Source of the DNA: a virus
Taxonomy: Duplodnaviria > Heunggongvirae > Uroviricota > Caudoviricetes
IMG/VR virus record: IMGVR_UViG_2734482538_000012
Length of the DNA stretch: 49,248 nt
Direction: 5' to 3' (one strand)
Of this stretch, positions 1 through 49,248 are shown piece by piece (positions within the stretch are counted from its first letter, which is position 1; each line of letters begins with the position of its first letter). The notes beneath the pieces were generated by a model, which saw nothing but the letters and a program-made list of their open reading frames with translations, was not told where the DNA came from and did no database searches. The translations under genes and the position numbers were made by a program.

Positions 1-212
1 CACAACATCCGAGGACAGCATCGTCCGCTGGCCCACAGAAGTCCGGAAAGTCATGGAAGGTCGTTGTTGGGAGGAGGTACAAATTCTCTCATGCAAAAAA
101 TACGTAAAATCGATAATAGCTGGAAATAATTCAATACATGCACTCTCGAAAGTGCATCAGCCAACCGCAGAACGTTATTGCATACAACGTTTCTGCGGCA
201 TAATCCCAATGA

Positions 213-797
213 TTACTCCCTGACAGGGTTCGTAGGCCACTCAATATCAGGTGCAGTTGACGTATCAACACGGTTCAGCAATACCCGATACTTTTTCCAT
301 GCTTCCAGCAACGAGATTTCTTCCTCCGTTGCAATTTCCAGATCTGCAGCATCCTGAAGCGGCGCAATATGCTCACTGGCTACCTGCATCAGGTTGTTTT
401 TTGTTTCTTCCGCCTCCCGGATCCGGAACAGTTTTTCTGCTTCCGTATCCTTCACCCAGGCTGTGCCGTTCCACTTCTGAAACTCCCCTTCCGGCGATAA
501 CCAGGTAACATTTTCCGGTAACGGACCGAGTTCAGAAATAAATAACGCGTCGCCGGAAGCCACGTCATAAACCGTTTTACCCCGATGATCTTCAACGAGA
601 TGCCACGATGACTCATCACTGTTGAAAACAGCCACGAAGCCAGCCGGAATATCTGGCGGTGCAATATCGGTACTGTTTGCTGGCAGACCTGTATGAGGCG
701 GAATATATGCATCACCTTCACCAATAAATTCATTAGTTCCGGCCAGCAGATTATAAATTTTTATGGTCCGTGGTTGTTCACTCATTCTGAATGCCAT
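213..797 (-). CDS. tfaR: Tail fibre assembly protein (Tfa family)
   Basis: 194 aa ORF directly downstream of the side tail fibre gene, start codon overlapping its stop; N-terminus [20 protein letters not shown] matches my recollection of Rac TfaR and lambda Tfa. Confidence 0.85.
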
Positions 798-3757
798 TAT
801 GCAAGCCTCACAATATAGTTAAATGCGATGTTTTTGACGGTGTTTTCCGCGTTACCAGCAGCGTTAACGGTGATGGTGTGTCCATGTGAACCAATCGCAA
901 CGGAGTGCGTATGAGCACCAATACCGACAGTATGCGCGTGTGCACCTGCAGATGCTGCTGTGCCGGACAGTGAATGGCTATGATTACCATCTATACTGGT
1001 ATTCGCTAACCACCCCGTAGACATACCTACTGAGCCTTGTACACCCCAGGTATTTTGACCTGAGCTTGTATAACCATATTGATAAGTATCTTTAAAAACA
1101 CTGGGGTTAAATCGACGGCCATCTCTATGGCTGTGATTACCAGCTGCATTCGTGCTGCCACTTAAACTATGGGTATGCGCACCAGTGTTATTCGTGGATT
1201 TAGTGCCGTAATCAAACGACGATGTGGTTTTCGTCCCCAAATCCGTACTGGATGCGCTGGCGCTGTGGGTATGCGATTTAATGCCGTCCTGTTCCTGAGA
1301 CAATACGGCCCGACCACTGGCAGGTTTGCCCTTAATCGTCCAGCCACGCATATCAGGGATCACGCCTGACGGATAAGCCGCTGCAAGTTTCGGGTATGCA
1401 GATTTGTCAAAAGCCTGCCCCTGCATCAGGGCATAGCCAGACGGAACGGTATCTGATGGCCACGGGATTGGTGCGCCAGGCGGATAAAACTGCTCTGATG
1501 GCGTATAGAGTGAATAAACTGTACCGTCCGTTAACCCTTCCGGCTTATTAGCAGAATATGCTGGTGACGTATGAATCGTCACGCTGGCATTACTGGTATA
1601 ATCCCATTGAATATTTACACCAGTCGCATAATTTCCGATTGCAACGTAAATATCGTAAGTATCACCAGATGTATTAACCCAGGCAAAATTTGTAAACCCT
1701 GTCAATGTGCGCTGCCATAAAGCACCAGTAATCCCCTTCGGATTACCATTACCTGCACGTAAAACAAGTTCAGATATACCTGCCTGTTGAGGTGACCCCA
1801 CGTTAAATCCAGCGCCACCAATCAACGTAATTGAAACAACAGAACTCGCCTGTGGCATGGTTACCGTTGCTAATTTGAACCAACCAGCACCACCGCTGAA
1901 TGACATTGTTGTTGAGTTAAGCGTACCAATATCTTTCGGCGTCAGTGTTATATCCGCTGAAAGCGCCTTACCATTCACCTTACGGGCAGAAGGTACCCGA
2001 CCATTCGCATTGTCATTAGCTGCTTTCACTGCTTTCGGTGTCGCAGCAAGCGTTTCAGATGTGCTGTTGGTTGCACTACTGAGCTGGACAATTCCTTTTT
2101 GTGCTGTCGTAGCGTCCTGTGCGGTGTATTTCCCGTTAGCCAGGTCATACGCGGCCTTAACGGCTTTTGGCGTTGCCGCCTGTGACTCGGAAGTGCTGTT
2201 AGTCGCACTGCTGAGCTGAACTATCCCTTTCTGTGCTGTCGTTGCATCCTGTGCGGTGTATTTCCCGTTAGCCAGGTCATACGCGGCCTTAACGGCTTTT
2301 GGCGTTGCCGCCTGTGACTCGGAAGTGCTGTTGGTCGCACTGCTGAGCTGTACTATCCCCTTTTTCGTCGTGCTCGCATCCTCAAGCGCCACGGCGGATG
2401 CAATATCCTCTGCCCGTTTTGCTGCTGTCTCGGCGCGCGTTGCCGCGGATTCCGCCGTACTTTTGCTCTGTGCTGCCGCTGCCGCACTGCCAGCAGCCTC
2501 TGTCGCCTTCGTGGATGCCGTCGTGGCGCTGCCCCTCGCTGCTGACGCCTGTCTGGTCGCCTCATCTTTTGAAGCAGACGCAGATGATGCCGATGACGCC
2601 GCCGAACTGGCGGACGATGCGGCAGCCGTTTTTGAGGATTCTGCGCTGGTTTCCGACGCTTTCGCGTTCGTTTCGGATGTCTTCGCTGCGGAAGCAGACC
2701 TCGCTGCTGCGCTGGCCTGTTCAGTGGCTTCGCCAGCCTTCGTTGTGGCTGTTGAAGCGGATGATGCGGCGCTTTCTGCCGATTTTCCGGCGGCGGTGGC
2801 ACTGACTGCTGCCTCCTCTGCCTTAATGGACGCCTCACGGGCCGATGATGCAGCTGCTGTCTCAGAGTCTGCCGCAGCTGAGGCGCTCTGTTCCGCTGCC
2901 GTTTCAGAAGACTTAGCATTCGTCTCGGACGTTTTTGCCGCCTTCACGGAATTTCCTGCCGCCGTTGCCGAGGAGGCTGCACTGCTGGCGCTTGTGGAGG
3001 CGTTCGTTTCTGATGATTTTGCCGCCTCTTTGGAGGCCGCCGCATCTCTGGCTGAAGTGGCGGCTTCTGACGCTTTCGTTGTCGCAGTGGATGCAGAAGT
3101 GGCTGCTGATTTTTGTGACGCTGCAGCATTCGTTTCTGACGTTTTCGCCGCACCGGCACTGGTGGCCGCCGCGCTTTTTGAGGACTCTGCAGCGGCAGCA
3201 CTTTTTGATGCTTCAGTGGCCTTTGTTGATGCCGTTCCTGCGCTGGAAGACGCCTCCTGAGCCGAAGTCGCGGCCTGTCCGGCTGACGTGCTGGCTGCAC
3301 GCGCTGAGCCTGCAGCATCAGTCGCATGGGTTGCCGCCTCACGGGCAGATGTGCCGGCATCACTGGCTGACTTCTTCGCGGCTGCCGTGTTCTGTGCCAC
3401 CGCGGACGCGTTACGCGCCACCTCTTCCACCATCAGTTCAAAACGGCGCAGAGCCTCCGGACGGGCATCATCCTCCGTCATGGCACCGAGAAAATCATTC
3501 AGCGTACCGGGTCGGGAATCTTCATACACAGTGATGGTCCCGGCATGTGACGGCGGGAATCCTTCCACCAACAGAATAACGCTGTACTGACCGTACTCAA
3601 CGTCCATGCTGTAACGCCCGGCTTCATCCGGATTTTCTGAGGCCAGCGTGTTCACCACCACCGTGGTGCTGTTACGTTTTGCTTTCAGCTGGATTGTGCA
3701 GTTCTGTACCGGTTTTCCTGTGCCGTCTTTCAGTACACCTGAAATCTTTACTGCCAT
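797..3757 (-). CDS. stfR: Side tail fibre protein with a long Ala/Ser/Thr-rich shaft and three 44-aa phage tail fibre repeats
   Basis: 988 aa ORF (track start 3763 is GTG; first ATG at 3757 gives [12 protein letters not shown]). Position after lom and before tfa; three copies of a [15 protein letters not shown]...[10 protein letters not shown] motif; C-terminal His-rich region. Confidence 0.85.
1975..2365. repeat. Tandem in-frame repeats of about 132 nt (about 3 copies) inside the tail fibre gene
   Basis: Near-identical nucleotide blocks starting near 2101 and 2233 (gtgctgtcgt...gctgagctg.actatccc) with a partial third copy; they encode the 44-aa protein repeat. Confidence 0.7.
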
Positions 3758-3765
3758 ATTCACCC

Positions 3766-3821: not shown

Positions 3822-4628
3822 TCAGAACTTATAACCGACACCCACGATGAAACCGTCAGTGCGCCAGTCGCCACTGCCGGAGCCTTCATAAGCAATATCA
3901 ATGGCCACGGATTCGGTCGGGTTAAACTGCACGCCAGCTCCCCACGCCAGAGACGTGTTGCTGTGGCGACCGTCATCACTTCCGGTCAGCACATCGTNNN
4001 NNNNNNNNNNNNNNNNNNNNNNNNNNNNNNNNNNNNNNNNNNNNNNNNNNNNNNNNNNNNNNNNNNNNNNNNNNNNNNNNNNNNNNNNNNNNNNNNNNNN
4101 NNNNNNNNNNNNNNNNNNNNNNNNNNNNNNNNNNNNNNNNNNNNNNNNNNNNNNNNNNNNNNNNNNNNNNNNNNNNNNNNNNNNNNNNNNNNNNNNNNNN
4201 NNNNNNNNNNNNNNNNNNNNNNNNNNNNNNNNNNNNNAATCCCCGGAAAAAGTCGACACACGGCTGTAAGCCACACCCGCCATCGCATACGCGCTGAACC
4301 ATTCATTCACGCGCACAGACGGCCCCGCCATCACGCTGAACCAGCGGTTACGCACGGAATCTTCATGCCAGCGGGTATCGCTGTAACGGGTCAGCTGGCG
4401 ATTCTTGTCTCCTGCATAGCTGAATGACGTCACCAGCCCCAGCGTATCCGTAAACTCATAACGGTATTTCACGTTAATCCCGTTCAGATCATCACTGCCG
4501 GGAACGTTGGTCCGGGCATGAAGATACCCCGCGCTCAGCGTGGACTGATGTTCAGACGCCCATGCAGGCGCACCGGATACGGCCAGGCAAATGGCTGCGG
4601 ACAAAATGGCTGCACAAACTTTACGCAT
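3822..4628 (-). CDS. lom: Outer-membrane protein Lom (Ail/Lom family), interrupted by an assembly gap
   Basis: N-terminus MRKVCAAILSAAICLAVSGAPAWASEHQSTLSAGY and C-terminus ...DGFIVGVGYKF match my recollection of lambda Lom; a 240-nt N-run replaces a short internal segment. Confidence 0.8.
   Translation of the reverse strand: MRKVCAAILSAAICLAVSGAPAWASEHQSTLSAGYLHARTNVPGSDDLNGINVKYRYEFTDTLGLVTSFSYAGDKNRQLTRYSDTRWHEDSVRNRWFSVMAGPSVRVNEWFSAYAMAGVAYSRVSTFSGDXXXXXXXXXXXXXXXXXXXXXXXXXXXXXXXXXXXXXXXXXXXXXXXXXXXXXXXXXXXXXXXXXXXXXXXXXXXXXXXXXDVLTGSDDGRHSNTSLAWGAGVQFNPTESVAIDIAYEGSGSGDWRTDGFIVGVGYKF
3998..4237. other. Assembly gap (240 N) inside lom
   Basis: Run of N characters in the sequence. Confidence 0.99.
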
Positions 4629-4698
4629 AATTACCTCTCGCTTTTCTGCAATAAAAAAGGCGTCATTCCTGACGCCATTTATTGGGGTTATAAATATT

Positions 4699-7600
4699 TC
4701 AACGAATACTGATGCCGGAAGCCGCTTTTTTGGTCACAATCACCGTACAGTCGGTGATATTGCCTGCCCCCTGATTGCCTTTCTGGAAAATCTTAAACTC
4801 CAGAGTGACGCTACCACCACCACTAGGCATATCAATAACTGCACTGTAACTACCGGGAATGGCACCTTTAGTTTCTCTGGATGCGATTAATACGCCGTTT
4901 TTGCGAACTTCAAAACCATAACCCGTGTATCGCGTGCCTCCCGGGTTATTTCCGCTCCCCGGATCGTCATACGCTATACCGTTAAAAATAATGGGCGGAA
5001 TAATAATCTGGCGGTCAAAGTTATGATCATCGCTGATGGTGACTGTAACCGTACCGTCTGGTGTTTCCGTGTTACCCCACGTACCGACTTTTTTCGGGAA
5101 GGCTTTTGATACAGCTTTAACGAAATCCCCTCTGACCTGGGTCGCCTCCAGCATGCCCTTAATCGTACAGTTCTGGTTAATCGTGACATTGTTGAGCGTT
5201 CCTGAGTTCGCATTCACACTACCACTGATATCCGCATTTTTAGCGGTCAGCTTTCCGTCTGATGTCAGGGAAAATACCGGAGGACTGCCACCGCTGGTAA
5301 TGGCGGGGGCTGTCAGGCGCTTCAGGAACACGTCGTTCATGAATATCTGGTTGCCCTGCGCCACAAACATCGGCGTTTCATTCCCGTTTGCCGGGTCAAT
5401 AAACGCGATACGATTGGCGGCAACCAGAAACTGGCTCAGCTTGCCTTCCTCCGTGTCCTCCATGCTGAGGCCAATACCCGCGACATAATGTTTGCCGTCT
5501 TTGGTCTGCTCAATTTTGACGCCCCACATCGCATTCCATTTATCGTTAGCGTCCTTCCACTCTTTCGAAAACTCATCCAGTCTGCTGGCGTTATCCTCCG
5601 TCAGATCAACTTTTTCCAGCAGCTCTTTACCGAGATGGGATTCGGTTATCTTGCCTTTGAAAAAATCCAGGTAACCTTCCGCATCATCGCTCGCCCGACC
5701 GACGGCCTCCACGAATGCCGATTTGCCAACGGTGTTCACACTGCGGATATAAAAGTAATAATCATGGCCCGGTTTGATATTGATACTGGCGGCTATCCAG
5801 TACAGCCCCGCGCCAAGGTAGCGGGCTGTGGTTTCAACCTGCCTGATATCGGTAATCCGCGTTTCCGAGAACCAGAACTCAAACTGTACCGTCGGATCAT
5901 AAACCGCAAGATGCGGCGTGGCAGTTATCTGAAAATAGCCCGGCGTCAGCTCAATCCGCGACGGTGCTACCGGTGCGGCAATCCTGAACGATACCGACGC
6001 CGGATCGCCCTGCTGTCCCCAGGCATTTACCGCCCGGACTGTCAGCGTGTACCGTCCCAGCGCCAGTTGCGTGAAGCGGTATGTGGTTTCCGTCGTCCGG
6101 GCCGTGCTGACCNNNNNNNNNNNNNNNNNNNNNNNNNNNNNNNNNNNNNNNNNNNNNNNNNNNNNNNNNNNNNNNNNNNNNNNNNNNNNNNNNNNNNNNN
6201 NNNNNNNNNNNNNNNNNNNNNNNNNNNNNNNNNNNNNNNNNNNNNNNNNNNNNNNNNNNNNNNNNNNNNNNNNNNNNNNNNNNNNNNNNNNNNNNNNNNN
6301 NNNNNNNNNNNNNNNNNNNNNNNNNNNNNNNNNNNNNNNNNNNNNNNNNNNNNNNNNNNNNNNNNNNNNNNNNNNNNNNNNNNNNNNNNNNNNNNNNNNN
6401 NNNNNNNNNNNNNNNNNNNNNNNNNNNNNNGCCGTCAGGAACACGGCTCACTTTCACCTTCACGCCGTCGGTGACGGACTGAACCTCCACGCTGACCGGA
6501 TTGCCACTTCCGTCAACCAGGCTTATCAGCATGGTACCGGAGGATGGCAGCGTGATTTCACGGTCGAGCGTCAGCGTCCGGGTCTGGCTGTTTACCGCCA
6601 GCACGCGCCCGCCGATGCTGATACCCGCATAGTCATCATCACAGATTTCAATGACATCGCCCGGCACATGGCGAAGCCCTTCTGCGCCCACGCTGAAGTC
6701 CACGGTCTGCGTTTCCAGCAGTTCTGTTTTAATCAGCCACAGCCCGGCGCGGTGTGCCTGCCCCCGGCTGGTACAGCCAAAAGCATCCATCTTCGTGACG
6801 TTACGACCGTAACGGGCAATGGCCTGCGTATCCTCCACAAGCTCTGTCGCCGTCTCCCAGCCGTTATCCGGGTCAATCCAGTTCACCTCAACGGCATTAT
6901 GGCGGTCTTTCAGGGCGCTGAAGCTGTAGCGGAACGGCGCGCCATCATCCGGCATCACCACATTACTGCGGTTATAGGTCCACACCTTATCCGACGGTCG
7001 GTCCTGCACGAACGTCAGCGTCTGCCCGTTCCATACCGGCATACAGCGCATCGCCGAGCAGAAATCACTGAGCACATCCCACGCCTTGCGCTGTGTGGTC
7101 AGGTACGCATTACAGGTGATGCGCGGCTCCGTGCCGCCAAAGCCGTCCGGCACTGACTGGTCGCAGTACTGGCCGATGACATACAGCGCCCATTTGTCCA
7201 CATCCGCCGCACCAAGACGTTTCCCCATGCCGTAGCGCGGGTGGGTCAGCATATCCCACAGACACCAGGCCATGTTGTTGCTGTATGCTGGTTTTAACGT
7301 TCCGTCCCAGATACCGCTGTATTGTCGCGTCTGCGGGTTATAGTTCGACGGCACCTGCAGAATGCGCCCGCGAAGATGATAATTACGANNNNNNNNNNNN
7401 NNNNNNNNNNNNNNNNNNNNNNNNNNNNNNNNNNNNNNNNNNNNNNNNNNNNNNNNNNNNNNNNNNNNNNNNNNNNNNNNNNNNNNNNNNNNNNNNNNNN
7501 NNNNNNNNNNNNNNNNNNNNNNNNNNNNNNNNNNNNNNNNNNNNNNNNNNNNNNNNNNNNNNNNNNNNNNNNNNNNNNNNNNNNNNNNNNNNNNNNNNNN

Positions 7601-8682
7601 NNNNNNNNNNNNNNNNNNNNNNNNNNNNNNNNNNNNNNACAGCGCATCGCCGAGCAGAAATCACTGAGCACATCCCACGCCTTGCGCTGTGTGGTCAGCC
7701 AGGCATTACAGGTGATGCGCGGCTCCGTGCTGCCAAAGCCGTCCGGCACCGACTGGTCACAGTACTGGCCGATGACATACAGCGCCCATTTATCCACATC
7801 TGCCGCACCAAGACGTTTCCCCATGCCATAGCGCGGATGGGTCAGCATATCCCACAGACACCAGGCCATGTTGTTGCTGTATGCCGGTTTTAACGTTCCG
7901 TCCCAGATACCGCTGTATTGCCGCGTCTGCGGATTATAGTTCGACGGCACCTGCAGAATGCGCCCGCGAAGATGATAATTACGGCTCACCTGCTGGCTGC
8001 CGAACTGCTCCGAATCCACCTGTACGCCGACCAGTGCCGTGTTCGGGTAGCACTGTTTCACATCGATGATTTCGGTGTATGACGACCAGAGCGTTTTGTT
8101 CTGCAGCTGGTCTGTGGTGCTGTCCGGTGTCATCCTGCGCATCCGGATACTGAACGGGCGCGGAGGCAGGTTATCCACCACCACCGAGACCAGATACTGC
8201 GAGGTGGTTTTGCCCTTAATGGTGATGTCTTTTTCCGTCACCCAGCCACCGTTACGCTGTATCTGAACCAGCAGGCGAACTTCAGACGGATTCCTGTCTC
8301 CCTTTGAGGTGGTTTCCACCAGTGCCTGTACACCGAAGGTAAAACGCAGTCGGTCAATGTTTGCCGACGTGATGGTCCGGGTGATCGGCGTGTCATATTT
8401 CACTTCCGTACCCAGCACCGTCTCGGAGCCGGAGGATTCAAACCCCTCCGGCGGTGACTGCTCCTGCTCACCTGCCCGGAACACCACCGTGACGCCGGAG
8501 ATGTTGGTATTCCCCTCATTGTCCAGCACCGGCGTACTGTTCAGCAGCACGCTTTTTAATCCATCCACCGGACCTTCAACCGGCCCTTCACTGATGGCAT
8601 CGATCACACTCAGCAGCTGCGTGGACTTCAGGTTGTCCTTCGCTTCGCGCGGGGTATGCCCCTTACTGCTGCCTTTACCCAT
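4699..8682 (-). CDS. J: Tail tip / host specificity protein J, fragmented by two N-gaps and a duplicated flank
   Basis: Three track ORFs (7294-8682, 5951-7354, 4699-6444) are collinear pieces of one J-like protein; N-terminus [41 protein letters not shown] matches lambda J as I recall it; the C-terminal part lies upstream of lom as in lambda. Confidence 0.8.
6113..6430. other. Assembly gap (318 N) inside J
   Basis: Run of N characters. Confidence 0.99.
7043..7983. repeat. About 345 bp of J sequence present on both sides of the 7388-7638 gap as non-identical copies
   Basis: Sequence from acagcgcatcgccgagcagaaatcactgagc to gatgataattacg occurs at about 7043-7387 and again at 7639-7983 with roughly a dozen substitutions; both encode [32 protein letters not shown]... 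Confidence 0.85.
7388..7638. other. Assembly gap (about 251 N) inside J
   Basis: Run of N characters. Confidence 0.99.
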
Positions 8683-8742
8683 TCCTCACGCTCCATAAAC
8701 GACAAAACCGCCCGCAGGCGGTTTCTCATAAAACATTTTGCA

Positions 8743-10031: not shown

Positions 10032-10036
10032 GGGAT

Positions 10037-16245: not shown

Positions 16246-16271
16246 AGGAGCCTCCTATGTCATTAATTGCG

Positions 16272-36314: not shown

Positions 36315-36329
36315 GTATGACCTGCGCTA

Positions 36330-37907: not shown

Positions 37908-37922
37908 AAGCGCCTCCGGCAA

Positions 37923-38684: not shown

Positions 38685-38706
38685 AAAAATTTCCTCCCGG
38701 TAAAAA

Positions 38707-39453: not shown

Positions 39454-39459
39454 GGTCAG

Positions 39460-40266: not shown

Positions 40267-40329
40267 AATTGCCCCGTATGATGCTGCCCGGTGGCTTAGA
40301 ATAAGCACAAACAGCATGGAAACTTTTGC

Positions 40330-40752
40330 TTAATGAACAATGACAGAATCGTCGGAAGACCCGCCGCCGCTGAAATGCGCTTTCCGGTAAACGGCTTGGA
40401 CTGCATCATCATGCGCATCAATTGCCGTACTTAACGCTTCCTGCGCCGCCAGTAATGCACGGCGTTCCAGGGTATCGAAGATGCAGAGTCGGTGACGCAG
40501 CTCGCGCGGAAGGATTGCCAGAATTGCTGGGATCAGCTTCTGAATTTTTTCTCTTTGCGTTTTCGTTTCACCTTTCAACCAACGGTGATAGATATTCTGC
40601 TGATTATTCCAGTCCTTGCCTGGTACCAGGGGCAATTCGCCGCCCCCCTGGCGCAGATATTCTTCAGTAATGGCATTGGCTACCCATGCCTGCCCTTTTT
40701 CGGCTGCCAGGGCTAACAACACTGACTCGATGTGCTCATGCTTGATTTTCAT
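40330..40752 (-). CDS. ydaT: YdaT-like protein (Rac early-operon protein, toxic on overexpression in K-12)
   Basis: 140 aa ORF immediately downstream of and overlapping the Cro-like gene; order racR / ydaS / ydaT matches Rac. Confidence 0.65.
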   Translation of the reverse strand: MKIKHEHIESVLLALAAEKGQAWVANAITEEYLRQGGGELPLVPGKDWNNQQNIYHRWLKGETKTQREKIQKLIPAILAILPRELRHRLCIFDTLERRALLAAQEALSTAIDAHDDAVQAVYRKAHFSGGGSSDDSVIVH

Positions 40753-41003
40753 GAATCAACTCCCATCAGCTTTTTCGTAGTAGTTTTATTTCTGCCAATA
40801 GTTAAAATTACATCAGCAGAAAATAATCCGTTTGATGCATGAGCGATTTTTTCAGCGTAATTTGTTTCGCCGGTATATTCTGTGCGAGGCAATTTTCCGT
40901 TATCCATCCATTTGTAGATTGCTCTTTGGCTGACACCACAAACGTCGGCCACAACAGAAACGCGAACAGTTTTGATTACATCTTCAAGTGTTTTCTGGTT
41001 CAT
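40749..41003 (-). CDS. ydaS: Cro-like HTH regulator YdaS
   Basis: Track ORF 40749-41075; likely start MNQKTLEDVIKTVRVSVVADVCGVSQRAIYKWM (HTH); divergent from the repressor gene. Confidence 0.65.
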   Translation of the reverse strand: MNQKTLEDVIKTVRVSVVADVCGVSQRAIYKWMDNGKLPRTEYTGETNYAEKIAHASNGLFSADVILTIGRNKTTTKKLMGVDS

Positions 41004-41064
41004 ATCACCCTCACAATGTGAACTTTGAGTACATGCTATAACAGAACTGACAGTACATTCAAGA
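41004..41064. promoter_or_regulatory. Divergent promoter/operator region between ydaS and racR
   Basis: About 60 bp intergenic segment between divergent HTH genes, with repeated AGTACAT-containing elements (ttgagtacatgc ... gacagtacattc). Confidence 0.4.
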
Positions 41065-41502
41065 GTGAATATCATTGAACTTATGGTTCATGAAGATAAA
41101 GCGCGTAAAGAGTTCGCCAGTAGGCTTGCGCTAGCCTGTGAAAACGCTGGTTATGAACAACATGGAAGGCAGGCAGAAATTGCCCGTCGAATGAAATTAA
41201 CACCAAAAGCGGTTAGCAAATGGTTTAATGGCGAAACAATTCCTCGCCGAGAGAAATTAAGGGAATTAGCAACACTCATTGGAACAACACCAACCTATCT
41301 TTTGGGAGAGGATACAGAAGAAAGTGGACAGGTACGTTTCTATCAGGAGTTAAATCCAAGACAAAAAATCATCATTGACCTTCTGGACGAGCTCCCTGAC
41401 AGTGAGACAGATGAACTTTTAAAAACTCTTGAGGAGAAAAAACAGAAGTACAATGCAATTTACGAAGAGCTAGCACGAAAGAAAAAACAAAAAGCCTCTT
41501 AA
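41065..41502 (+). CDS. racR: Prophage repressor, HTH XRE-family (RacR-like)
   Basis: Track ORF begins with GTG at 41065 (an ATG follows at 41083); HTH (GRQAEIARRMKLTPKAVSKWFNGETIP); divergent from the Cro-like gene. Confidence 0.7.
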   Translation: MNIIELMVHEDKARKEFASRLALACENAGYEQHGRQAEIARRMKLTPKAVSKWFNGETIPRREKLRELATLIGTTPTYLLGEDTEESGQVRFYQELNPRQKIIIDLLDELPDSETDELLKTLEEKKQKYNAIYEELARKKKQKAS

Positions 41503-41744
41503 ACCAGCATAAATCCGGTAGCGTCCCCCTCCGGGTTTGTGCTTCACTTTATCCCATCTCATTTTTTTACACACAAAATGTACTTATAGTACTTTACATC
41601 AATGAACACAAAGTACATTATATACCTACCAACCCACCCCGCCCCACAGAACGCAGGGCAATACTTCGAGTTACCAGGCAGTGGTCAGGGGTTAAGTAGC
41701 CAGCCCGAGGCGTATGAACATGACGGCAGGGTTCAGATTTTGCA

Positions 41745-41927
41745 GTGCAGCAGGTTTCAGTTCCGCCACCCGGCGTTAAGGGGAGAGATAAGATGGTGCA
41801 TTACGAAGTAGTTCAGTATTTGATGGATTGTTGCGGTATCACTTACAACCAGGCTGTGCAGGCTTTACGCAGCAACGACTGGGATCTCTGGCAGGCAGAA
41901 GTCGCTATACACAGCAACAAGATGTGA
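41745..41927 (+). CDS. Small Rac-type protein (YdaF-like)
   Basis: 60 aa track ORF; sequence MVHYEVVQYLMDCCGITYNQAVQALRSNDWDLWQAEVAIHSNKM recalls Rac YdaF. Confidence 0.4.
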   Translation: MQQVSVPPPGVKGRDKMVHYEVVQYLMDCCGITYNQAVQALRSNDWDLWQAEVAIHSNKM

Positions 41928-41937
41928 GATTCGCAAA

Positions 41938-42093
41938 ATGCAAAAAATCGACCTCGGCAACAACGAATCCCTGGTGTGCGGCGTGTTCCCCAACCAGGAT
42001 GGAACGTTCACTGCCATGACGTATACCAAAAGCAAAACATTTAAAACCGAAACTGGTGCGCGCCGATGGTTGGAGAAGCACACAGTAAGCTAA
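41938..42093 (+). CDS. Small Rac-type protein (YdaG-like), not in the ORF track
   Basis: Hand translation MQKIDLGNNESLVCGVFPNQDGTFTAMTYTKSKTFKTETGARRWLEKHTVS (51 aa); ends convergently on the sieB stop. Confidence 0.4.
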   Translation: MQKIDLGNNESLVCGVFPNQDGTFTAMTYTKSKTFKTETGARRWLEKHTVS

Positions 42094-42578
42094 CGATTAA
42101 AACGTCTACTCCTGCTGTTCCAGAATAACTTCATAAAATGGGAGTATTTTTCGGTGACGAGATAATAAGAACAGTTTGCGCTATCACTCTGATGTTGAAT
42201 GATGCCCTTCCGTTCTAATTTTTTCATAACCGGGTTACGGCAAGGAGAAGTGATAATAAGATTTCCTGTTTTAAGGAAATCTTTAAATACAGCGATTTCT
42301 TTCTCAGATAAACGAAGCAATACTCGTTGCTCTGGTAGTAATGAATAATGCTTTTGAATATGTGCTCGCAATCTTGAGAAGGAAATGGCGACCACGAAAG
42401 AAAAGGCAAAAACGATAATCTGAAAGAGCCAAGGTATTTCAGTATAAGCATTGAATGCGACAGTAAACTCTTTCGGTATCAGCCAGAGAGTGAGACCAAA
42501 AATGATAATCGTATACATAAGTATTTCGAGTGGCTCGTTAGCAAAAAGTTTCAACAATGGAGTAAATACATCCAACAT
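42090..42578 (-). CDS. sieB: Superinfection exclusion protein SieB
   Basis: Track ORF to 42701; likely start MLDVFTPLLKLFANEPLE (162 aa); two hydrophobic transmembrane segments; opposite strand to the early-left genes, as in Rac. Confidence 0.7.
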   Translation of the reverse strand: MLDVFTPLLKLFANEPLEILMYTIIIFGLTLWLIPKEFTVAFNAYTEIPWLFQIIVFAFSFVVAISFSRLRAHIQKHYSLLPEQRVLLRLSEKEIAVFKDFLKTGNLIITSPCRNPVMKKLERKGIIQHQSDSANCSYYLVTEKYSHFMKLFWNSRSRRFNR

Positions 42579-43019
42579 ATCAATAACTCTCAACTGTAAG
42601 GGTATTGAAATGTTAACACAAGCTCTCGCTGTAGGGGTATAGCCGAGACCACCGAAGCCCGGAGGTGGTGAAATAAAACCGGGCACAACACGAAGGCGCA
42701 TTTCCGATATCCATAAAGAGTCGGTCTTGTCTGTTAAATTTAAATGGTGGGAGTGCGCCTCCGGTTGTAAATAACGACATTGCTGTGTGTAGTCCTGGCG
42801 GCATCAGTTTTTTTCTTGAAGTTCGGCTGATGTCCGCCCTTTTTAAAGTGAATTTTGTGATGCGGTGAATGCGGCTAAGCGCACGTGGCACAGTTAAAAG
42901 TCATGTTAGTCCTTATTGGTTTGGGTGGGAAAGCCGACTGTAATTGTTAACTGGTTGCAGTCACCTGGAGGCACCAGGCACCGCATCAACAAAGTTCATT
43001 TGTAAAAATGGAGATAATT

Positions 43020-43241
43020 ATGATTGCACATCACTTCGGAACTGATGAAATACCACGTCAGTGTGTGACTCCTGGCGATTATGTTCTTCATGAAGGCCGG
43101 ACATATATTGCCTCGGCAAACAATATTAAAAAGCGAAAACTATATATTCGTAACCTGACCACAAAAACATGCATTACTGACCGCATGATTAAAGTCTTCC
43201 TCGGTCGTGATGGTTTACCTGTAAAGGCGGAGTCATGGTGA
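43020..43241 (+). CDS. kilR: Cell-division inhibitor KilR (FtsZ-ring inhibitor)
   Basis: Track ORF 43008-43241; [46 protein letters not shown]... (73 aa from 43020) matches my recollection of Rac KilR; ggaga Shine-Dalgarno. Confidence 0.75.
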
Positions 43242-43411
43242 TGACTAAGAAAATAAAATGTGCTTACCACCTTTGCAAAAAAGACGTTGAAGAAAGCAAA
43301 GCTATTGAAAGAATGCTTCACTTCATGCACGGGATTTTATCAAAAGACGAACCGAGAAAATATTGCAGTGAAGCTTGTGCCGAAAAAGACCAGATGGCAC
43401 ATGAACTTTAA
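43241..43411 (+). CDS. ydaE: Small Cys-rich protein YdaE
   Basis: Hand translation [56 protein letters not shown] (56 aa); its ATG overlaps the kilR stop (TGATG). Not in the ORF track. Confidence 0.6.
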   Translation: MTKKIKCAYHLCKKDVEESKAIERMLHFMHGILSKDEPRKYCSEACAEKDQMAHEL

Positions 43412-43485
43412 TTAATTGACTATTCGAAACTGAATTTATGCCAGAAATGGCAGGTATTCGCTCAACCTTAATTAAGGAGAAAAAC

Positions 43486-43761
43486 ATGATTACCAATTAT
43501 GAAGCCACTGTTGTAACTACCGATGACATTGTTCACGAGGTGAATCTGGAAGGAAAGCGCATTGGCTACGTAATTAAAACAGAAAATAAAGAAACCCCAT
43601 TCACTGTGGTTGATATCGATGGTCCATCAGGCAACGTAAAAACACTTGATGAAGGTGTCAAAAAAATGTGCCTGGTGCATATCGGAAAGAATCTGCCCGC
43701 AGAAAAAAAAGCCGAATTTCTGGCAACTCTAATTGCAATGAAATTAAAAGGTGAAATCTGA
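43486..43761 (+). CDS. racC: RacC protein
   Basis: Track ORF 43438-43761; likely start MITNYEATVVTTDDIVHEVNLEGKR (91 aa) with an aaggaga Shine-Dalgarno; immediately upstream of recE. Confidence 0.7.
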   Translation: MITNYEATVVTTDDIVHEVNLEGKRIGYVIKTENKETPFTVVDIDGPSGNVKTLDEGVKKMCLVHIGKNLPAEKKAEFLATLIAMKLKGEI

Positions 43762-43862
43762 AAGAAATAGCCTGCGTATGGCGCAGGCTATGAACAGTGT
43801 GTATCCGGCAAGATCATTCACTGAACAAAACGAATTTTAATCTGAGTTGAGGTTAAAAAACA

Positions 43863-46463
43863 ATGAGCACAAAACCACTCTTCCTGTTACGGAAAGCGAA
43901 AAAATCATCCGGTGAACCTGACGTCGTCCTGTGGGCAAGCAACGATTTTGAATCGACCTGTGCCACTCTGGACTACCTGATCGTTAAGTCAGGTAAAAAA
44001 CTGAGCAGCTATTTTAAAGCTGTTGCCACGAATTTTCCTGTCGTTAATGACCTGCCCGCTGAAGGTGAGATCGATTTTACCTGGAGTGAACGCTATCAAC
44101 TCAGCAAAGACTCCATGACATGGGAACTAAAACCGGGAGCAGCACCAGACAACGCTCACTATCAAGGCAATACCAACGTCAACGGCGAAGACATGACTGA
44201 GATTGAGGAGAATATGCTACTCCCAATTTCTGGCCAGGAACTGCCCATTCGTTGGCTTGCTCAACACGGCAGCGAAAAACCGGTAACGCACGTTTCACGC
44301 GACGGACTCCAGGCATTACACATTGCTCGGGCTGAAGAACTACCGGCTGTTACTGCCCTGGCTGTTTCCCACAAAACCAGCCTGCTCGACCCGCTGGAAA
44401 TTCGCGAACTCCACAAACTGGTTCGTGACACTGACAAAGTTTTCCCTAATCCTGGTAATTCAAACCTGGGACTGATAACTGCTTTTTTCGAAGCATACCT
44501 GAACGCTGACTACACCGATCGAGGACTGCTGACAAAAGAGTGGATGAAGGGTAATCGTGTTTCACACATCACTCGCACGGCTTCCGGTGCTAATGCTGGC
44601 GGCGGAAACCTCACCGATCGCGGCGAAGGTTTCGTACACGATCTGACGTCACTGGCGCGGGACGTAGCCACTGGCGTACTGGCCCGTTCAATGGATCTGG
44701 ACATCTATAACCTTCATCCGGCACACGCTAAACGCATTGAGGAAATTATCGCTGAAAATAAACCGCCCTTTTCTGTTTTCCGCGACAAATTCATCACCAT
44801 GCCTGGCGGGCTGGATTATTCCCGCGCCATCGTGGTTGCGTCCGTAAAAGAAGCACCAATTGGGATCGAGGTCATCCCCGCGCACGTCACTGAATATCTG
44901 AACAAAGTACTGACTGAAACCGATCATGCCAACCCTGATCCGGAAATCGTGGATATTGCCTGCGGTCGCTCCTCTGCCCCGATGCCGCAGCGAGTAACAG
45001 AAGAAGGAAAACAGGATGATGAAGAAAAACCGCAACCATCTGGAACAACGGCAGTTGAACAGGGAGAGGCTGAAACAATGGAACCGGACGCAACTGAACA
45101 TCATCAGGACACGCAGCCGCTGGATGCTCAGTCACAGGTAAATTCTGTTGATGCGAAATATCAGGAACTGCGGGCAGAACTCCATGAAGCCCGGAAAAAC
45201 ATTCCATCAAAAAATCCTGTCGATGCCGATAAATTGCTTGCTGCATCACGTGGTGAATTTGTTGACGGAATTAGCGACCCGAACGATCCGAAATGGGTAA
45301 AGGGGATCCAGACTCGCGATTGTGTGTACCAGAACCAGCCAGAAACGGAAAAAACCAGCCCGGATATGAATCAACCTGAGCCAGTAGTGCAACAGGAACC
45401 GGAAATAGCCTGCAATGCCTGCGGCCAGACTGGCGGGGATAACTGCCCTGACTGTGGTGCGGTGATGGGCGACGCAACATACCAGGAAACATTCGATGAA
45501 GAGAGTCAGGTTGAAGCTAAGGAAAATGATCCGGAGGAAATGGAAGGCGCTGAACATCCGCACAATGAGAATGCTGGCAGCGATCCGCATCGCGATTGCA
45601 GTGATGAAACTGGCGAAGTCGCAGATCCCGTAATCGTAGAAGACATAGAGCCAGGTATTTATTACGGAATTTCGAATGAGAATTACCACGCGGGTCCCGG
45701 TGTCAGTAAGTCTCAGCTCGATGACATTGCTGATACTCCGGCACTGTATTTGTGGCGTAAAAATGCCCCCGTGGACACCACAAAGACAAAAACGCTCGAT
45801 TTAGGAACCGCTTTCCACTGCCGGGTACTTGAGCCGGAAGAATTCAGTAACCGCTTTATCGTAGCACCTGAATTTAACCGCCGGACAAACTCCGGAAAAG
45901 AAGAAGAGAAAGCGTTTCTGAGGGAATGCGCAAGCACAGGAAAAACGGTTATCACTGCCGAAGAAGGCCGGAAAATTGAACTCATGTATCAGAGCGTTAT
46001 GGCTTTGCCGCTGGGGCAATGGCTTGTTGAAAGCGCCGGACACGCTGAATCATCAATTTACTGGGAAGATCCTGAAACAGCAATTTTGTGTCGGTGCCGT
46101 CCGGACAAAATTATCCCTGAATTTCACTGGATCATGGACGTGAAAACTACGGCGGATATTCAACGATTCAAAACCGCTTATTACGACTACCGCTATCACG
46201 TTCAGGATGCATTCTACAGTGACGGTTATGAAGCACAGTTTGGAGTGCAGCCAACTTTCGTTTTTCTGGTTGCCAGCACAACTATTGAATGCGGACGTTA
46301 TCCGGTTGAAATTTTCATGATGGGCGAAGAAGCAAAACTGGCAGGTCAGCTGGAATATCACCGCAATCTGCGAACCCTGGCTGACTGCCTCAATACCGAT
46401 GAATGGCCAGCTATTAAGACGTTATCACTGCCCCGCTGGGCTAAGGAATATGCAAATGACTAA
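43863..46463 (+). CDS. recE: Exodeoxyribonuclease VIII (RecE)
   Basis: 866 aa, same length as K-12 RecE; C-terminal PD-(D/E)xK-type nuclease region; stop overlaps the recT start. Confidence 0.9.
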
Positions 46464-47265
46464 GCAACCACCAATCGCAAAAGCCGATCTGCAAAAAACT
46501 CAGGGAAACCGTGCACCAGCAGCAATTAAAAATAACGACGTGATTAGTTTTATTAACCAGCCATCAATGAAAGAGCAACTGGCAGCAGCTCTTCCACGCC
46601 ATATGACGGCTGAACGTATGATCCGTATCGCCACCACAGAAATTCGTAAAGTTCCGGCGTTAGGAAACTGTGACACTATGAGTTTTGTCAGTGCAATCGT
46701 ACAGTGTTCACAGCTCGGACTTGAGCCCGGTAGCGCCCTCGGTCATGCATATTTACTGCCTTTTGGTAATAAAAACGAAAAGAGCGGTAAAAAAAACGTT
46801 CAGCTAATCATTGGCTATCGCGGCATGATTGATCTGGCTCGCCGTTCAGGTCAAATCGCCAGCCTGTCAGCCCGTGTTGTCCGTGAAGGTGACGAGTTTA
46901 ATTTCGAATTTGGCCTTGATGAAAAGTTAATACACCGCCCAGGAGAAAACGAAGATGCCCCTGTTACCCACGTCTATGCTGTCGCAAGACTGAAAGACGG
47001 AGGTACTCAGTTTGAAGTTATGACGCGCAAACAGATTGAGCTGGTGCGCAGCCAGAGTAAAGCTGGTAATAACGGGCCGTGGGTAACTCACTGGGAAGAA
47101 ATGGCAAAGAAAACGGCTATTCGTCGCCTGTTCAAATATCTGCCCGTATCAATTGAGATCCAGCGTGCAGTATCAATGGATGAAAAGGAACCACTGACAA
47201 TCGATCCTGCAGATTCCTCTGTATTAACCGGGGAATACAGTGTAATCGATAATTCAGAGGAATAA
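46456..47265 (+). CDS. recT: Single-strand annealing recombinase RecT
   Basis: Track ORF 46399-47265; start [35 protein letters not shown] at 46456 gives 269 aa, matching my recollection of K-12 RecT. Confidence 0.9.
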
Positions 47266-47320
47266 TTCAGCCTGGCGGTGTAATGCACCGCCAACTTGAA
47301 ATATTTTTATGAGAAAAATT

Positions 47321-47470
47321 ATGAGATATGACAATGTTAAACCATGTCCATTTTGTGGTTGTCCATCAGTAACGGTGAAAGCCATTTCAGGATATTACCG
47401 AGCGAAGTGTAACGGATGCGAATCCCGAACCGGTTATGGTGGAAGTGAAAAAGAAGCACTCGAACGATGA
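47321..47470 (+). CDS. ralR: Restriction alleviation protein Lar/RalR (also the toxin of the RalR/RalA type I toxin-antitoxin pair in K-12)
   Basis: Hand translation MRYDNVKPCPFCGCPSVTVKAISGYYRAKCNGCESRTGYGGSEKEALER (49 aa) with the Lar-family KPCPFCG zinc-ribbon motif. Missing from the ORF track (below 60 aa). Confidence 0.7.
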   Translation: MRYDNVKPCPFCGCPSVTVKAISGYYRAKCNGCESRTGYGGSEKEALER

Positions 47471-47507
47471 AATAAACGAACCACTGGAAATAATAATGGA
47501 GGTGTTC

Positions 47508-47696
47508 ATGTATAAAATTACCGCCACTATTGAAAAGGAAGGTGGCACTCCTACTAACTGGACAAGATATTCAAAATCTAAACTAACGAAATCAGAATGC
47601 GAAAAAATGCTCTCAGGTAAAAAAGAAGCAGGCGTTTCCAGAGAGCAGAAAGTAAAACTGATAAATTTTAATTGCGAGAAACTTCAGTCCTCGTGA
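47508..47696 (+). CDS. ydaC: YdaC-like small protein
   Basis: Track ORF 47436-47696; likely start MYKITATIEKEGGTPTNWTRY at 47508 preceded by ggagg; gene order ralR / ydaC / xis as in Rac. Confidence 0.6.
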   Translation: MYKITATIEKEGGTPTNWTRYSKSKLTKSECEKMLSGKKEAGVSREQKVKLINFNCEKLQSS

Positions 47697-47795
47697 ATTG
47701 CATTGTATTCAAATTAAAACTTCATAGCTGATTATTAATAATCAACATCGGGCGTCAATTTAAGTCTAACATTGGCGCCTGCCAGAGGTGATGCG

Positions 47796-48011
47796 ATGGC
47801 ACAAGTAATCTTTAATGAAGAGTGGATGGTTGAATACGGCCTGATGCTTCGCACTGGTCTGGGGGCCAGACAAATTGAAGCATACCGCCAGAACTGTTGG
47901 GTGGAAGGCTTCCACTTCAAACGAGTATCTCCTTTAGGGAAGCCAGACAGTAAGCGAGGGATTATCTGGTATAACTATCCAAAGATAAATCAGTTTATCA
48001 AAGACTCATGA
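47796..48011 (+). CDS. xisR: Excisionase
   Basis: Track ORF begins with TTG at 47772; ATG at 47796 gives [41 protein letters not shown] (71 aa); immediately upstream of int. Confidence 0.75.
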
Positions 48012-48012
48012 T

Positions 48013-49248
48013 ATGTCTAAATTACCAACAGGTGTCGAGATTCGAGGTAAATACATTCGCATCTGGTTCATGTTTCGAGGAAAACGATGTCGGGAAACAT
48101 TGAAAGGCTGGGAGGTTACTAACAGTAACATTAAAAAAGCCGGGAATTTAAGAGCGTTGATAGTTCATGAAATCAATTCCGGTGAGTTTGAGTATTTAAG
48201 ACGTTTTCCCCAGTCCAGCACTGGGGCAAAAATGGTGACAACGAGGGTCATAAAAACGTTCGGGGAGCTTTGTGATATCTGGACAAAAATTAAAGAAACA
48301 GAGTTAACAACAAACACAATGAAGAAAACGAAATCACAATTAAAAACACTCAGGATAATAATTTGTGAGAGTACTCCGATATCGCATATTCGTTATAGCG
48401 ATATCTTAAACTACCGGAATGAACTGCTGCATGGAGAAACGCTTTACCTGGATAATCCAAGATCCAACAAAAAAGGAAGAACCGTGCGCACAGTTGATAA
48501 CTATATCGCCCTGCTCTGTTCGTTGTTACGTTTTGCGTATCAGTCGGGATTTATATCAACCAAACCATTTGAAGGAGTAAAGAAATTACAGAGAAACAGA
48601 ATAAAGCCTGACCCGTTATCTAAAACAGAATTCAATGCATTAATGGAAAGTGAAAAAGGACAGAGCCAGAACTTGTGGAAATTTGCCGTATACTCCGGGC
48701 TTCGTCACGGGGAACTGGCTGCTCTGGCGTGGGAGGATGTGGATTTCGAGAAGGGAGTTGTGAATGTCAGAAGAAACCTGACGATACTGGATATGTTCGG
48801 TCCCCCAAAAACAAATGCGGGGATCCGGACGGTAACACTACTGCAGCCTGCTCTTGAAGCACTGAAGGAGCAATACAAACTGACCGGGCATCATCGCAAA
48901 AGCGAAATCACTTTTTATCATCGGGAGTACGGCAGAACCGAAAAGCAAAAACTGCATTTTGTTTTCATGCCCAGAGTGTGTAACGGAAAACAGAAACCTT
49001 ATTACTCGGTAAGCAGTTTGGGTGCGAGATGGAATGCAGCAGTAAAACGTGCTGGTATTCGCCGCCGTAATCCGTACCATACGCGGCATACTTTTGCCTG
49101 CTGGCTGTTGACGGCAGGAGCGAACCCGGCGTTTATAGCCAGCCAGATGGGGCATGAAACTGCGCAGATGGTGTATGAAATTTACGGTATGTGGATTGAT
49201 GACATGAACGACGAACAGGTAGCCATGTTGAATGCGCGGTTATCGTAG
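48013..49248 (+). CDS. intR: Tyrosine-type site-specific integrase
   Basis: 411 aa; C-terminal catalytic region with conserved R...H.xR...Y residues (RHGELAALAWEDV; HTRHTFACWLL; YGMW); terminal gene of the xis/int module. Confidence 0.9.
   Translation: MSKLPTGVEIRGKYIRIWFMFRGKRCRETLKGWEVTNSNIKKAGNLRALIVHEINSGEFEYLRRFPQSSTGAKMVTTRVIKTFGELCDIWTKIKETELTTNTMKKTKSQLKTLRIIICESTPISHIRYSDILNYRNELLHGETLYLDNPRSNKKGRTVRTVDNYIALLCSLLRFAYQSGFISTKPFEGVKKLQRNRIKPDPLSKTEFNALMESEKGQSQNLWKFAVYSGLRHGELAALAWEDVDFEKGVVNVRRNLTILDMFGPPKTNAGIRTVTLLQPALEALKEQYKLTGHHRKSEITFYHREYGRTEKQKLHFVFMPRVCNGKQKPYYSVSSLGARWNAAVKRAGIRRRNPYHTRHTFACWLLTAGANPAFIASQMGHETAQMVYEIYGMWIDDMNDEQVAMLNARLS

Follow-up and report, generated by a model that had tools for sequence, protein, structure and literature searches.

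A probable near-complete Rac-lineage prophage and the three deletion junctions that relate it to the cryptic Rac element of Escherichia coli K-12

The DNA analysed here, IMG/VR virus record IMGVR_UViG_2734482538_000012 (Caudoviricetes), is a single stretch of 49,248 nt, hereafter referred to as the window; coordinates and strands are given in window numbering, unless they are marked as those of K-12 or of another genome. We consider it very probable that a full-length lambdoid temperate prophage, belonging to the Rac lineage and to the type that integrates in the 5' end of ttcA, is contained almost entirely in the window. Identity was assessed by tblastn with the Rac proteins of Escherichia coli K-12 MG1655 against the window, and by blastn against K-12 Rac (NC_000913.3 1411899-1434958). 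Seventeen K-12 Rac proteins recur in the window at 97.7-100% identity and in unchanged order. RecE (866 aa), RecT, RacC, KilR, YdaE, SieB, TrkG, RalR and IntR, which an earlier note on this DNA had named as Rac proteins, were all found where expected. The early-left and integration genes occupy the right end of the window, as follows (identities are to K-12).

41793-49248, plus strand: early-left and integration module, 97.7-100% identity
From 41793, start of the early-left operon: ydaG (97.7%) and ydaF (100%), by tblastn
42090-42578, minus strand: sieB, 99.4%
43020-43241, plus strand: kilR, 98.6%
Between kilR and recE: ydaE (100%) and racC (100%), by tblastn
43863-46463, plus strand: recE, 866 aa, 99.2%
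46456-47265, plus strand: recT, 98.5%
47321-47470, plus strand: ralR, 98.4%, 49 aa (W50stop)
47514-47692, minus strand: RalA small RNA (Rfam, 225 bits, full length)
Within the RalR/RcbA stretch 47321-47717: rcbA, 62 aa (69 aa in K-12), 98.6%
47796-48011, plus strand: xisR, 100%
48013-49248, plus strand: intR, 98.8%

The immunity region and the early-right operon lie to the left of this module. Labels in the early-right operon (37491-41003) are PHROG assignments, in addition to K-12 identities.

41603-41624: operator-like repeat (family D1), on one side of the repressor gene
41083-41502, plus strand: repressor, DicA/RacR-type, 139 aa
41019-41040 and 41043-41064: operator-like repeats (family D1), on the other side of the repressor gene
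40749-41003, minus strand: cro-like helix-turn-helix (HTH) gene
40330-40752, minus strand: ydaT (CII-like); YdaT, YdaU and YdaV are 99.2-99.6% identical to K-12
39460-40317, minus strand: ydaU (O-like)
38707-39453, minus strand: ydaV (DnaC-like)
37923-38684, minus strand: full-length ydaW (DUF1627)
37491-37907, minus strand: DUF977

Homology to lambdoid and Gifsy-type phages suggests a layout in which a short DicA/RacR-type repressor would be encoded between divergent promoters bearing operators. The leftward early operon would comprise ydaG, ydaF, kilR, ydaE, racC, recET, ralR, rcbA, xis and int, and the rightward one the cro-like gene, ydaT, the replication genes ydaU/ydaV, ydaW, morons, nin genes and a Q-like antiterminator gene. 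The repressor has HTH_3 as its sole Pfam match (2e-09); the NCBIfam DicA profile was matched at 2e-15 over positions 20-132 of 135, with a score below the family cut-off. Its resemblance to K-12 RacR is confined to the HTH, in which 12 of 33 residues match. It appears to belong to the same DicA/RacR family as the repressor of K-12, presumably with a different immunity specificity.

The blastn comparison, which corresponds to the whole-element alignment proposed as a check in the earlier note, yielded ten collinear blocks totalling 17,518 nt, the long blocks displaying 94-99.9% identity. The early-left block (41627-49248; 7.6 kb) aligns to K-12 at 98.7%. The late remnants of K-12 (rzoR, trkG, ynaK, ydaY, ynaA, lomR, stfR and tfaR) are all present, in the same order, at 94-100%. 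The likeness to K-12 Rac extends over the integrase and excisionase genes, the recET-to-ydaG block, ydaT/U/V, trkG, rzoR, ydaY, the tape-measure start, lom, stf and tfa, and the RalA small RNA is shared as well.

Three pairs of these blocks abut to the base in K-12, at positions 19388/19389, 17630/17631 and 15201/15202 of the K-12 locus (L003). In the window, the same blocks lie 8,938, 11,557 and 9,122 nt apart, respectively, and K-12 Rac therefore corresponds to the genome type of the window minus three stretches, which sum to 29.6 kb:

4427-13364: deletion 1, from J through most of the tape measure gene
15125-26681: deletion 2, tail tube, head genes, terminase, TAGT-like gene and most of the ParB-like gene
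29113-38234: deletion 3, part of Rz, endolysin, holin, TolA-like genes, Q, nin genes, two morons, DUF977 and the end of ydaW

The microhomology at the K-12 junctions is just 1-5 nt. K-12 Rac would thus have been generated from a genome of this type by three internal deletions through illegitimate recombination. K-12 further differs by an IS5 insertion in lom, an exchanged immunity region and a tail-end cargo of pinR/ynaE/ynaM instead of sitABCD; PinR, YnaE and YnaM of K-12 are absent from the window. The deletions account for three K-12 genes, which are chimeric stumps. YdaW (L003 14753-15313) consists of residues 1-151 of a 253-aa protein fused to Rz-region sequence, YnaK (L003 17378-17641) is the first 86 codons of the 262-codon ParB-like gene, and YnaA (L003 18455-19483) is the first 312 tape-measure codons joined to lom. 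The claim in the earlier note of a Rac-type prophage carrying modules that K-12 has lost is thus well supported, by the seventeen proteins, 17.5 kb of collinear sequence and three junctions.

The modules missing from K-12 belong for the most part to the late region, the features of which are listed below, from Q to the tail fibres.

32941-33540, minus strand: DUF1367/"irsA"/NinB-like gene of the nin region, open
32651-32941, minus strand: DUF1364/HNH-like gene of the nin region, open
32112-32654, minus strand: Q-like antiterminator (DUF1133, 2.5e-107; Phage_antitermQ, 26.1 bits; PHROG 753 "Q-like", 2e-79)
31741-31712, minus strand: promoter-like site downstream of Q (consensus scan only)
31684-31665, minus strand: terminator-like hairpin (consensus scan only)
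31178-31364, minus strand: STnc100 small RNA match (Rfam, 86.6 bits), between the terminator-like hairpin and the TolA-like genes
29626-29841, minus strand: P21-type (S21-family) holin (Pfam Phage_holin_2_1, 2.1e-35)
29129-29626, minus strand: SAR-type endolysin (Pfam Phage_lysozyme, 1.8e-45), with a Gly/Ala-rich, SAR-like N-terminus
28668-29132, minus strand: Rz, 154 aa
28730-28912, minus strand: embedded Rz1/RzoR, 100% to K-12
27073-28530, minus strand: trkG (match 27076-28530), TrkG 99.6% to K-12
25035-25244, minus strand: 69-aa open reading frame (ORF)
23937-25031, minus strand: TerS
22655-23956, minus strand: TerL, T4-type
21246-22652, minus strand: portal (DUF4055)
20150-21262, minus strand: Mu-F-like minor head protein
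19281-20045, minus strand: scaffold (DUF6651)
18043-19182, minus strand: P22-type coat
17824-18000, minus strand: 58-aa ORF
16272-17820, minus strand: connector genes (terminator, Neck1, Hc1, Ad1)
15283-16245, minus strand: tail tube
14465-15234, minus strand: tail assembly chaperone G (= YdaY) with GT extension (PHROG 313, 4e-46; 100% to K-12 YdaY)
11066-14299, minus strand: tape measure, 1077 aa, the first 312 aa being K-12 YnaA at 99.4%
8743-11073, minus strand: tail tip I, K (C40 peptidase), L and M
4699-8682, minus strand: tail-tip/host-specificity J, in three pieces across two runs of N
3822-4628, minus strand: lom (Ail/Lom outer-membrane protein), with a run of N inside; residues 1-130 95% identical to Lom of E. 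coli NCTC10444
797-3757, minus strand: side tail fibre (stf), 986 aa, open; N-terminal 494 aa 94% identical to K-12 StfR
213-797, minus strand: tfaR, 97.9% to K-12 and 100% to NCTC10444

Downstream of Q, one long late operon would follow, running from TolA-like morons and P21-type lysis genes through trkG, a ParB-like/TAGT gene pair, terminase and P22-type head genes to a lambda-type tail with side fibres. All genes of 8743-49248 are open, including those for packaging, head and tail, for lysis, and for replication and recombination, as well as the Q-like gene; stf and tfa are open too. The head and neck block (15283-25244) was assigned with Pfam and PHROG; all its genes are open and 100% identical to NCTC10444 coding sequences (CDSs), and the block is wholly missing from K-12. 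I, K, L, M and the tape measure gene are likewise open, and 99.9-100% identical to the RefSeq CDSs of NCTC10444. The slippery heptamer A_AAA_AAG lies at 14785-14779, 6 nt before the G stop codon, and the -1 frame is open for about 105 codons, to 14465; the G/GT programmed -1 frameshift signal is intact. Its domain matches identify the lysis cassette as P21-type (pinholin/SAR endolysin/Rz/Rz1). The genes for Q, DUF1364 and DUF1367 are all missing from K-12. The content described in the earlier note was recovered throughout: the packaging/head/tail module from terminase through Tfa by Pfam and PHROG, the Q-like gene by its DUF1133 and "Q-like" matches, the lysis cassette by its Pfam matches, SAR-like N-terminus and RzoR identity, and the nin region by DUF1367 and DUF1364. 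The promoter and terminator scans gave site counts close to those of shuffled sequence. trkG is a low-GC moron (GC 0.39-0.44) between the lysis and packaging genes. Two features of the fibre end may also be mentioned: a 132-nt tandem repeat in stf (2061-2365), and an Rfam IS009 match on the minus strand inside tfaR (256-454; 221 bits). A search for tRNA genes across the 49,248 nt found none.

The closest complete relative is in E. coli NCTC10444, to which the right half of the window is 100% identical. Its prophage encodes identical proteins for more than 45 genes, and the order from tfa to intR is unchanged. Over 8741-49248, the two sequences differ at 15 positions, and the window retains an open frame for every NCTC10444 CDS from gene I through intR, with 99.2-100% protein identity. 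RefSeq labels recE, recT, racC, kilR, ydaE, sieB, trkG, ralR, xisR and intR in the NCTC10444 element, together with a full late region. The differences are concentrated at the left end, where J, lom, stf and tfa display 93-97% identity, the shift beginning at the J start (~8740); J of NCTC10444 is a single ORF of 1137 codons, and the NCTC10444 ParB-like gene, which differs at 26404, is annotated as a pseudogene fragment.

The NCTC10444 element (NZ_LR134092.1, about 2711375-2763910) sits between sitD and ttcA. The window starts at the base that follows the NCTC10444 sitD stop codon, and ends with the intR stop codon. A 43-bp ttcA/ttcC att repeat is found in NCTC10444 at the ttcA 5' end (L002 24869-24911) and in the uspF-sitA gap (L001 3376-3418). 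As these repeats bracket sitABCD, the prophage of that strain measures about 52.5 kb and includes sitABCD as tail-end cargo. In both NCTC10444 (L001 3376-7227) and E. coli strain 190 (L013 6051-9500), the sitABCD iron/manganese transporter operon is flanked by the tail fibre assembly gene on one side and by the ttcC-like att repeat on the other. Strain 190 has the same layout as NCTC10444, and its sitD-tfa spacer is 100% identical to window 1-234. The earlier note had treated 1-49248 as the whole element; this stretch is indeed of near-full length, but the att sites, and probably sitABCD, lie beyond it. The type is common and is found with little change in numerous RefSeq genomes. In a megablast search against 5,426 complete E. 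coli genomes, with the halves of the window scored separately, 577 genomes had 80% or more of the left half at a single place, and 128 had 80% or more of the right half.

The window contains three runs of N, at 3998-4237 (in lom) and at 6113-6430 and 7389-7638 (in J), which we take as assembly gaps. With NCTC10444 J as the tblastn query, the pieces of J correspond to aa 1-348 (8682-7639), 234-552 (7387-6431) and 668-1137 (6111-4702). The J stretch measures 4,463 nt, versus 3,892-3,893 nt in the best-matching complete genomes, and the duplicated arrangement occurs in none of the 5,426 complete E. coli genomes. J-like sequence is found at a median of two and up to 15 places per genome. The net length excess is a multiple of three in both genes (lom +207, J +570), which is probably a coincidence.

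A number of observations weigh against an element that is intact, functional and strictly identical in kind to K-12 Rac. In the left part, J cannot be read as one ORF, its middle piece being in another frame, and codons 234-348 (115 codons) are doubled, the copies matching at 332 of 346 nt (96%); lom is broken by its run of N. The lengths of the N runs also disagree with the references (240 N versus 33 nt in lom, 318 versus 344 nt, and 250 N versus a 345-nt overlap). In the early region, RacR and YdaS had no tblastn match in the window, which has a DicA-type repressor and cro pair in place of the RacR/YdaS of K-12, and 40758-41627 could not be aligned to K-12. RalR is cut at codon 50 (49 aa, versus 64 aa in K-12) and RcbA at codon 63. 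As for induction, Pfam and NCBIfam detected no S24 autocleavage domain in the repressor, the LexA core CTGT-N8-ACAG has no exact match in the 49 kb, no match to the 20-nt LexA consensus at three or fewer mismatches was found in the window, and no dinI/antirepressor cassette was found upstream of the irsA-like gene. GenBank "phage" records (vB_EcoS-666R9 and others, ON4705xx, which are nearly identical to the window; Salmonella phage SPF_0923) were not used as proof of function; the ON4705xx study located its phages in the genomes of clinical isolates, and the records are therefore taken as prophage sequence rather than virion evidence.

The regulatory comparison is with the Gifsy-type prophages of Salmonella, which have in common with the window a short non-cleavable repressor, an irsA-like (DUF1367) nin gene and RecE-type recombination (Lemire et al. 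2011, PMC3121763). Antirepressors under LexA control, whose genes form part of a dinI-antirepressor-irsA cassette, inactivate the short repressors GfoR, GtgR, DicA and RacR (PMC3121763); it is this cassette, upstream of irsA, that was not found in the window. One-mismatch matches to the LexA core pattern number 26 and are scattered within genes. A link of the prophage to the SOS response was therefore dropped, there being no LexA box and no dinI/antirepressor ORF. Without an S24 domain, a LexA box or an antirepressor, the window offers no route from an inducing signal to the repressor. Any induction may therefore require a different prophage or some other signal. The suggestion in the earlier note of a functional relative of Rac, if inducible, finds nothing in the window that ties the prophage to an inducing signal; the idea had, moreover, already been published. 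The slot that harbours the dinI-antirepressor cassette in Gifsy phages is occupied here by 1.8 kb of AT-rich sequence upstream of the irsA-like gene (33540-35313), with no convincing ORF on the same strand. A single gene was recognised on the opposite strand:

34354-34692, plus strand: DUF1971 (TehB N-terminal-like; Pfam 2.6e-26, NCBIfam TehB N-terminal part 4e-13)

These observations bear on three other explanations of the window. The element might be full-length but defective, with a real 596-nt duplication and frameshift in J and a disrupted lom; it could then excise and perhaps lyse its host without producing infectious particles, and might lack an inducing circuit of its own. J as written is indeed split into three parts that occupy two frames, codons 234-348 being present twice, the repressor lacks self-cleavage and the window lacks a LexA box and an antirepressor, and the published relative KingRac is itself only weakly induced by mitomycin C. 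Nevertheless, we consider this explanation rather unlikely. None of the complete E. coli genomes has the 570 extra nucleotides, and the two J copies differ at 14 of 346 nt, which would be odd for a recent tandem duplication. All three N runs mismatch the reference length, and the genes that they interrupt are common to several lambdoid prophages of one genome. Multi-copy prophage genes are typical break places of short-read assemblies. The short repressors of this family can, furthermore, be lifted by antirepressors supplied in trans (PMC3121763). The simplest reading of the N runs is therefore that of scaffold gaps in a draft assembly. The description of the element as apparently intact in the earlier note holds, as regards open reading frames, for all genes of 8743-49248 and for stf and tfa, but cannot be extended to J, which is discontinuous, or to lom.

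A more radical artefact would be an assembly chimera, in which the left 7.4 kb (tfa, stf, lom and most of J) derive from another lambdoid prophage and were joined by the scaffolder. The fall in identity to NCTC10444, from 99.96% over 8741-49248 to 93-97% left of ~8740, and the presence in the left part of three N runs, one with overlapping flanks, might suggest such an origin. The drop begins at the J start, however, rather than at an N run, and this is the usual mosaic boundary between tail tip and fibres. The order sitD, tfa, stf, lom, J, I, K, L is also seen in two complete genomes (NCTC10444 and strain 190), window 1-234 matches the sitD-tfa spacer of strain 190 perfectly, and K-12 Rac bears its stfR/tfaR homologues at the same end. 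A chimera is thus improbable. The window might, finally, represent an unrelated mosaic lambdoid phage that acquired the RecET/int early-left block in common with Rac by recombination, and would then not be of the K-12 parental type. Lambdoid phages are mosaic, the immunity region is unlike that of K-12, and Rac-SA53 shares just 34% of the right half, at 92% identity. Such an origin is, nonetheless, extremely improbable and in effect refuted, because K-12 remnants of every module (rzoR, trkG, ynaK, ydaY, ynaA, lomR, stfR, tfaR and ydaT-ydaW) match in order at 94-100%, and because the K-12 junctions lie within genes that are whole in the window. We therefore retain the interpretation of an almost complete Rac-lineage prophage of the type from which K-12 Rac would be derived.

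One of the K-12 deletions removes a gene pair that merits separate description. The ParB-like and TAGT-like genes overlap and lie directly upstream of the terminase genes.

26147-26935, minus strand: ParB/Srx-fold protein, 262 aa (Pfam ParB_N, 8.7e-07; PHROG 620, 1.7e-90)
25222-26154, minus strand: TAGT-family GT-A glycosyltransferase homologue, 310 aa (Pfam TAGT, 4.1e-34; PHROG 842, 8e-104)

The TAGT match spans positions 4-205 of the 205-position profile (PF20691). By tblastn, the TAGT-like protein matched, at 27-47% identity, sequences of Lactobacillus, Nocardia, Vibrio and Porphyromonas phages and of Haloarcula virus HHTV-2. The start of the TAGT-like gene is overlapped by a ParB-like gene in the Lactobacillus phages phi jlb1 and c5 and in HHTV-2, and the terminase genes then follow; both proteins of the pair align over their full length with those of these viruses, at about 40% identity, and in c5 the pair constitutes the first two genes after the cos site. 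The motifs DDD, NEDVN and RIHH are invariant in the TAGT-like protein among four distant homologues, and G-H-x-R is invariant in the ParB-like protein. In 80 of 80 IMG/VR loci, the TAGT-like ORF is immediately preceded by a ParB-like ORF, and TerL (Terminase_3 or Terminase_6 family) was found within about 1.3 kb downstream in eight of nine diverse loci. The pair is a widely conserved, uncharacterised phage module. A 2026 study reported solitary TAGT homologues of undefined function in 288 of 753 phage genomes (PMC13216743), and a 2025 survey of ParB-fold proteins makes no mention of glycosyltransferase partners. The TAGT (PF20691) DNA-hypermodification systems share with the window a GT-A enzyme with an acidic motif, but the acceptor-base partner is missing here: the annotations and ORF scans of the window revealed no TET/JBP dioxygenase, dCMP/dUMP hydroxymethylase or alpha/beta-glucosyltransferase. 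Without a hydroxymethyl-base partner, the element cannot be classified as a known hydroxymethylcytosine-glucosylation system. A role of the pair in DNA modification or in the initiation of packaging is suggested solely by its position.

The ParB-like gene is also a recurrent site of deletion. Among its best 120 homologues by score, about 26 are E. coli fusions or truncations. At least eight E. coli variants diverge exactly after ...EPSGGKPD (codon 165), continuing into Lom, Tfa, tail tube, K, TAGT or other sequences, and about seven further variants in the same sample break at codons 153-167; the score ranking of this protein sample biases the break-point count towards late positions. At the four junctions checked at the DNA level, the left end was always at window 26439-26441, whereas the right ends differed (lom, 15695 in the tube gene, 9601 in K and 668 in tfa), with microhomology of 2-5 nt. 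Of 1,109 copies in complete genomes, 948 run without a break across 26241-26640, and the partial copies begin at several positions, including 26438, 26498 and 26515. The pattern of uninterrupted and partial copies suggests that the whole ParB-like gene is deletion-prone, 26440 being one sharp site within it, and a site-specific nick or cut may occur near this position. Helper-embedded satellites were considered as the cause of the fusions and rejected, because no ParB site is listed in the satellite paper and the fusions have direct junctions. A gix-like invertase site at the hotspot was also dropped; the resemblance was to a half-site only, and the variable partners show none. A bolder proposal is that the pair, as an obligate unit at the start of the Rac-type late operon, constitutes a packaging-coupled DNA-modification or packaging-initiation module not yet described, that 26440/26441 marks a site-specific nick or cut, such as pac, and that ynaK is the stump of this module; we regard this proposal as speculative and unlikely to hold as a whole.

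The earlier note had described three intervals, 35313-37352, 30093-31067 and 25222-26935, as strain-specific accessory content at module boundaries. All three contain real ORFs and lie at module borders, but the last is the conserved ParB-like/TAGT module and belongs to the core. The genes of the other two are listed below.

36330-37352, minus strand: HEPN protein (weak Pfam match), HEPN/RES-NTD1 plus RiboL-PSP HEPN, with the R-x4-H motif RNHLVH
35313-36314, minus strand: 333-aa protein with a GNAT-like C-terminal region (weak Pfam match)
30093-31067, minus strand: two tandem lipoproteins, each with a TolA C-terminal (domain III) fold (Pfam TolA, 1.3e-14 and 2.4e-23)

The genes of 35313-37352 have a low GC content and belong to PHROG 17908 and 16994, both unknown-function entries; homologues of the HEPN protein carry PF18870 or PF18735, and some homologues are named "GNAT family". 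This interval had no PADLOC match and no sequence relatives in the PDB. Prophage-like regions of Aeromonas, Yersinia, Dickeya and Shewanella contain homologues of the two genes, frequently one without the other. An obligate two-gene defence or toxin-antitoxin system was therefore rejected, since distant homologues of each gene occur alone, and the two are better viewed as independent morons. The TolA-like lipoproteins have signal peptides with lipobox-like ends (...IIGC and ...VAGC), belong to PHROG 5772 (unknown function) and occupy a classic moron slot, from the late promoter region to the holin gene. A possible function is that of periplasmic decoys, directed at Tol-dependent colicins or filamentous phages; a literature search on TolA-like decoy lipoproteins found no paper.

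Full-length and active relatives of Rac have already been published. Sp10 and CP-933R of E. coli O157:H7 are full-length Rac-like prophages at ttcA that can infect K-12 (PMC4632033). KingRac, with 46,834 bp at ttcA, replaces K-12 Rac, responds weakly to mitomycin C and yields virions visible by electron microscopy (Frazao et al. 2019, PMC6731689); it is transferred between strains in the mouse gut (PMC6731689; PMC12251178). The window is likened to KingRac, Sp10 and CP-933R through their published description as full-length Rac-like elements at ttcA. That the prophage of the window could excise, replicate and form virions on induction is suggested only by analogy to KingRac. Perceval, of E. 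coli LF82, is a lambda-like prophage with a sitABCD moron operon, comparable to that beside the Rac-type fibres in NCTC10444 and strain 190; it is described as a relative of lambda and Ev207 (PMC9928086), and the window itself is devoid of sitABCD.

With active relatives of Rac known and the element common in sequenced E. coli, the identification of a full-length Rac-lineage prophage is an ordinary rather than a new finding and, taken by itself, is of little consequence. It has a practical corollary, in that it is unsafe to call a prophage complete where J and lom are crossed by N runs. It also provides a base-level account of how the textbook cryptic Rac derives from a complete phage genome, and a template for the interpretation of the gene fragments of K-12 Rac. 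The ParB-like/TAGT pair could matter more than this main finding, and the recurrent deletion end within its first gene may offer a way to approach a site-specific break of the DNA in the Rac-type phage family.

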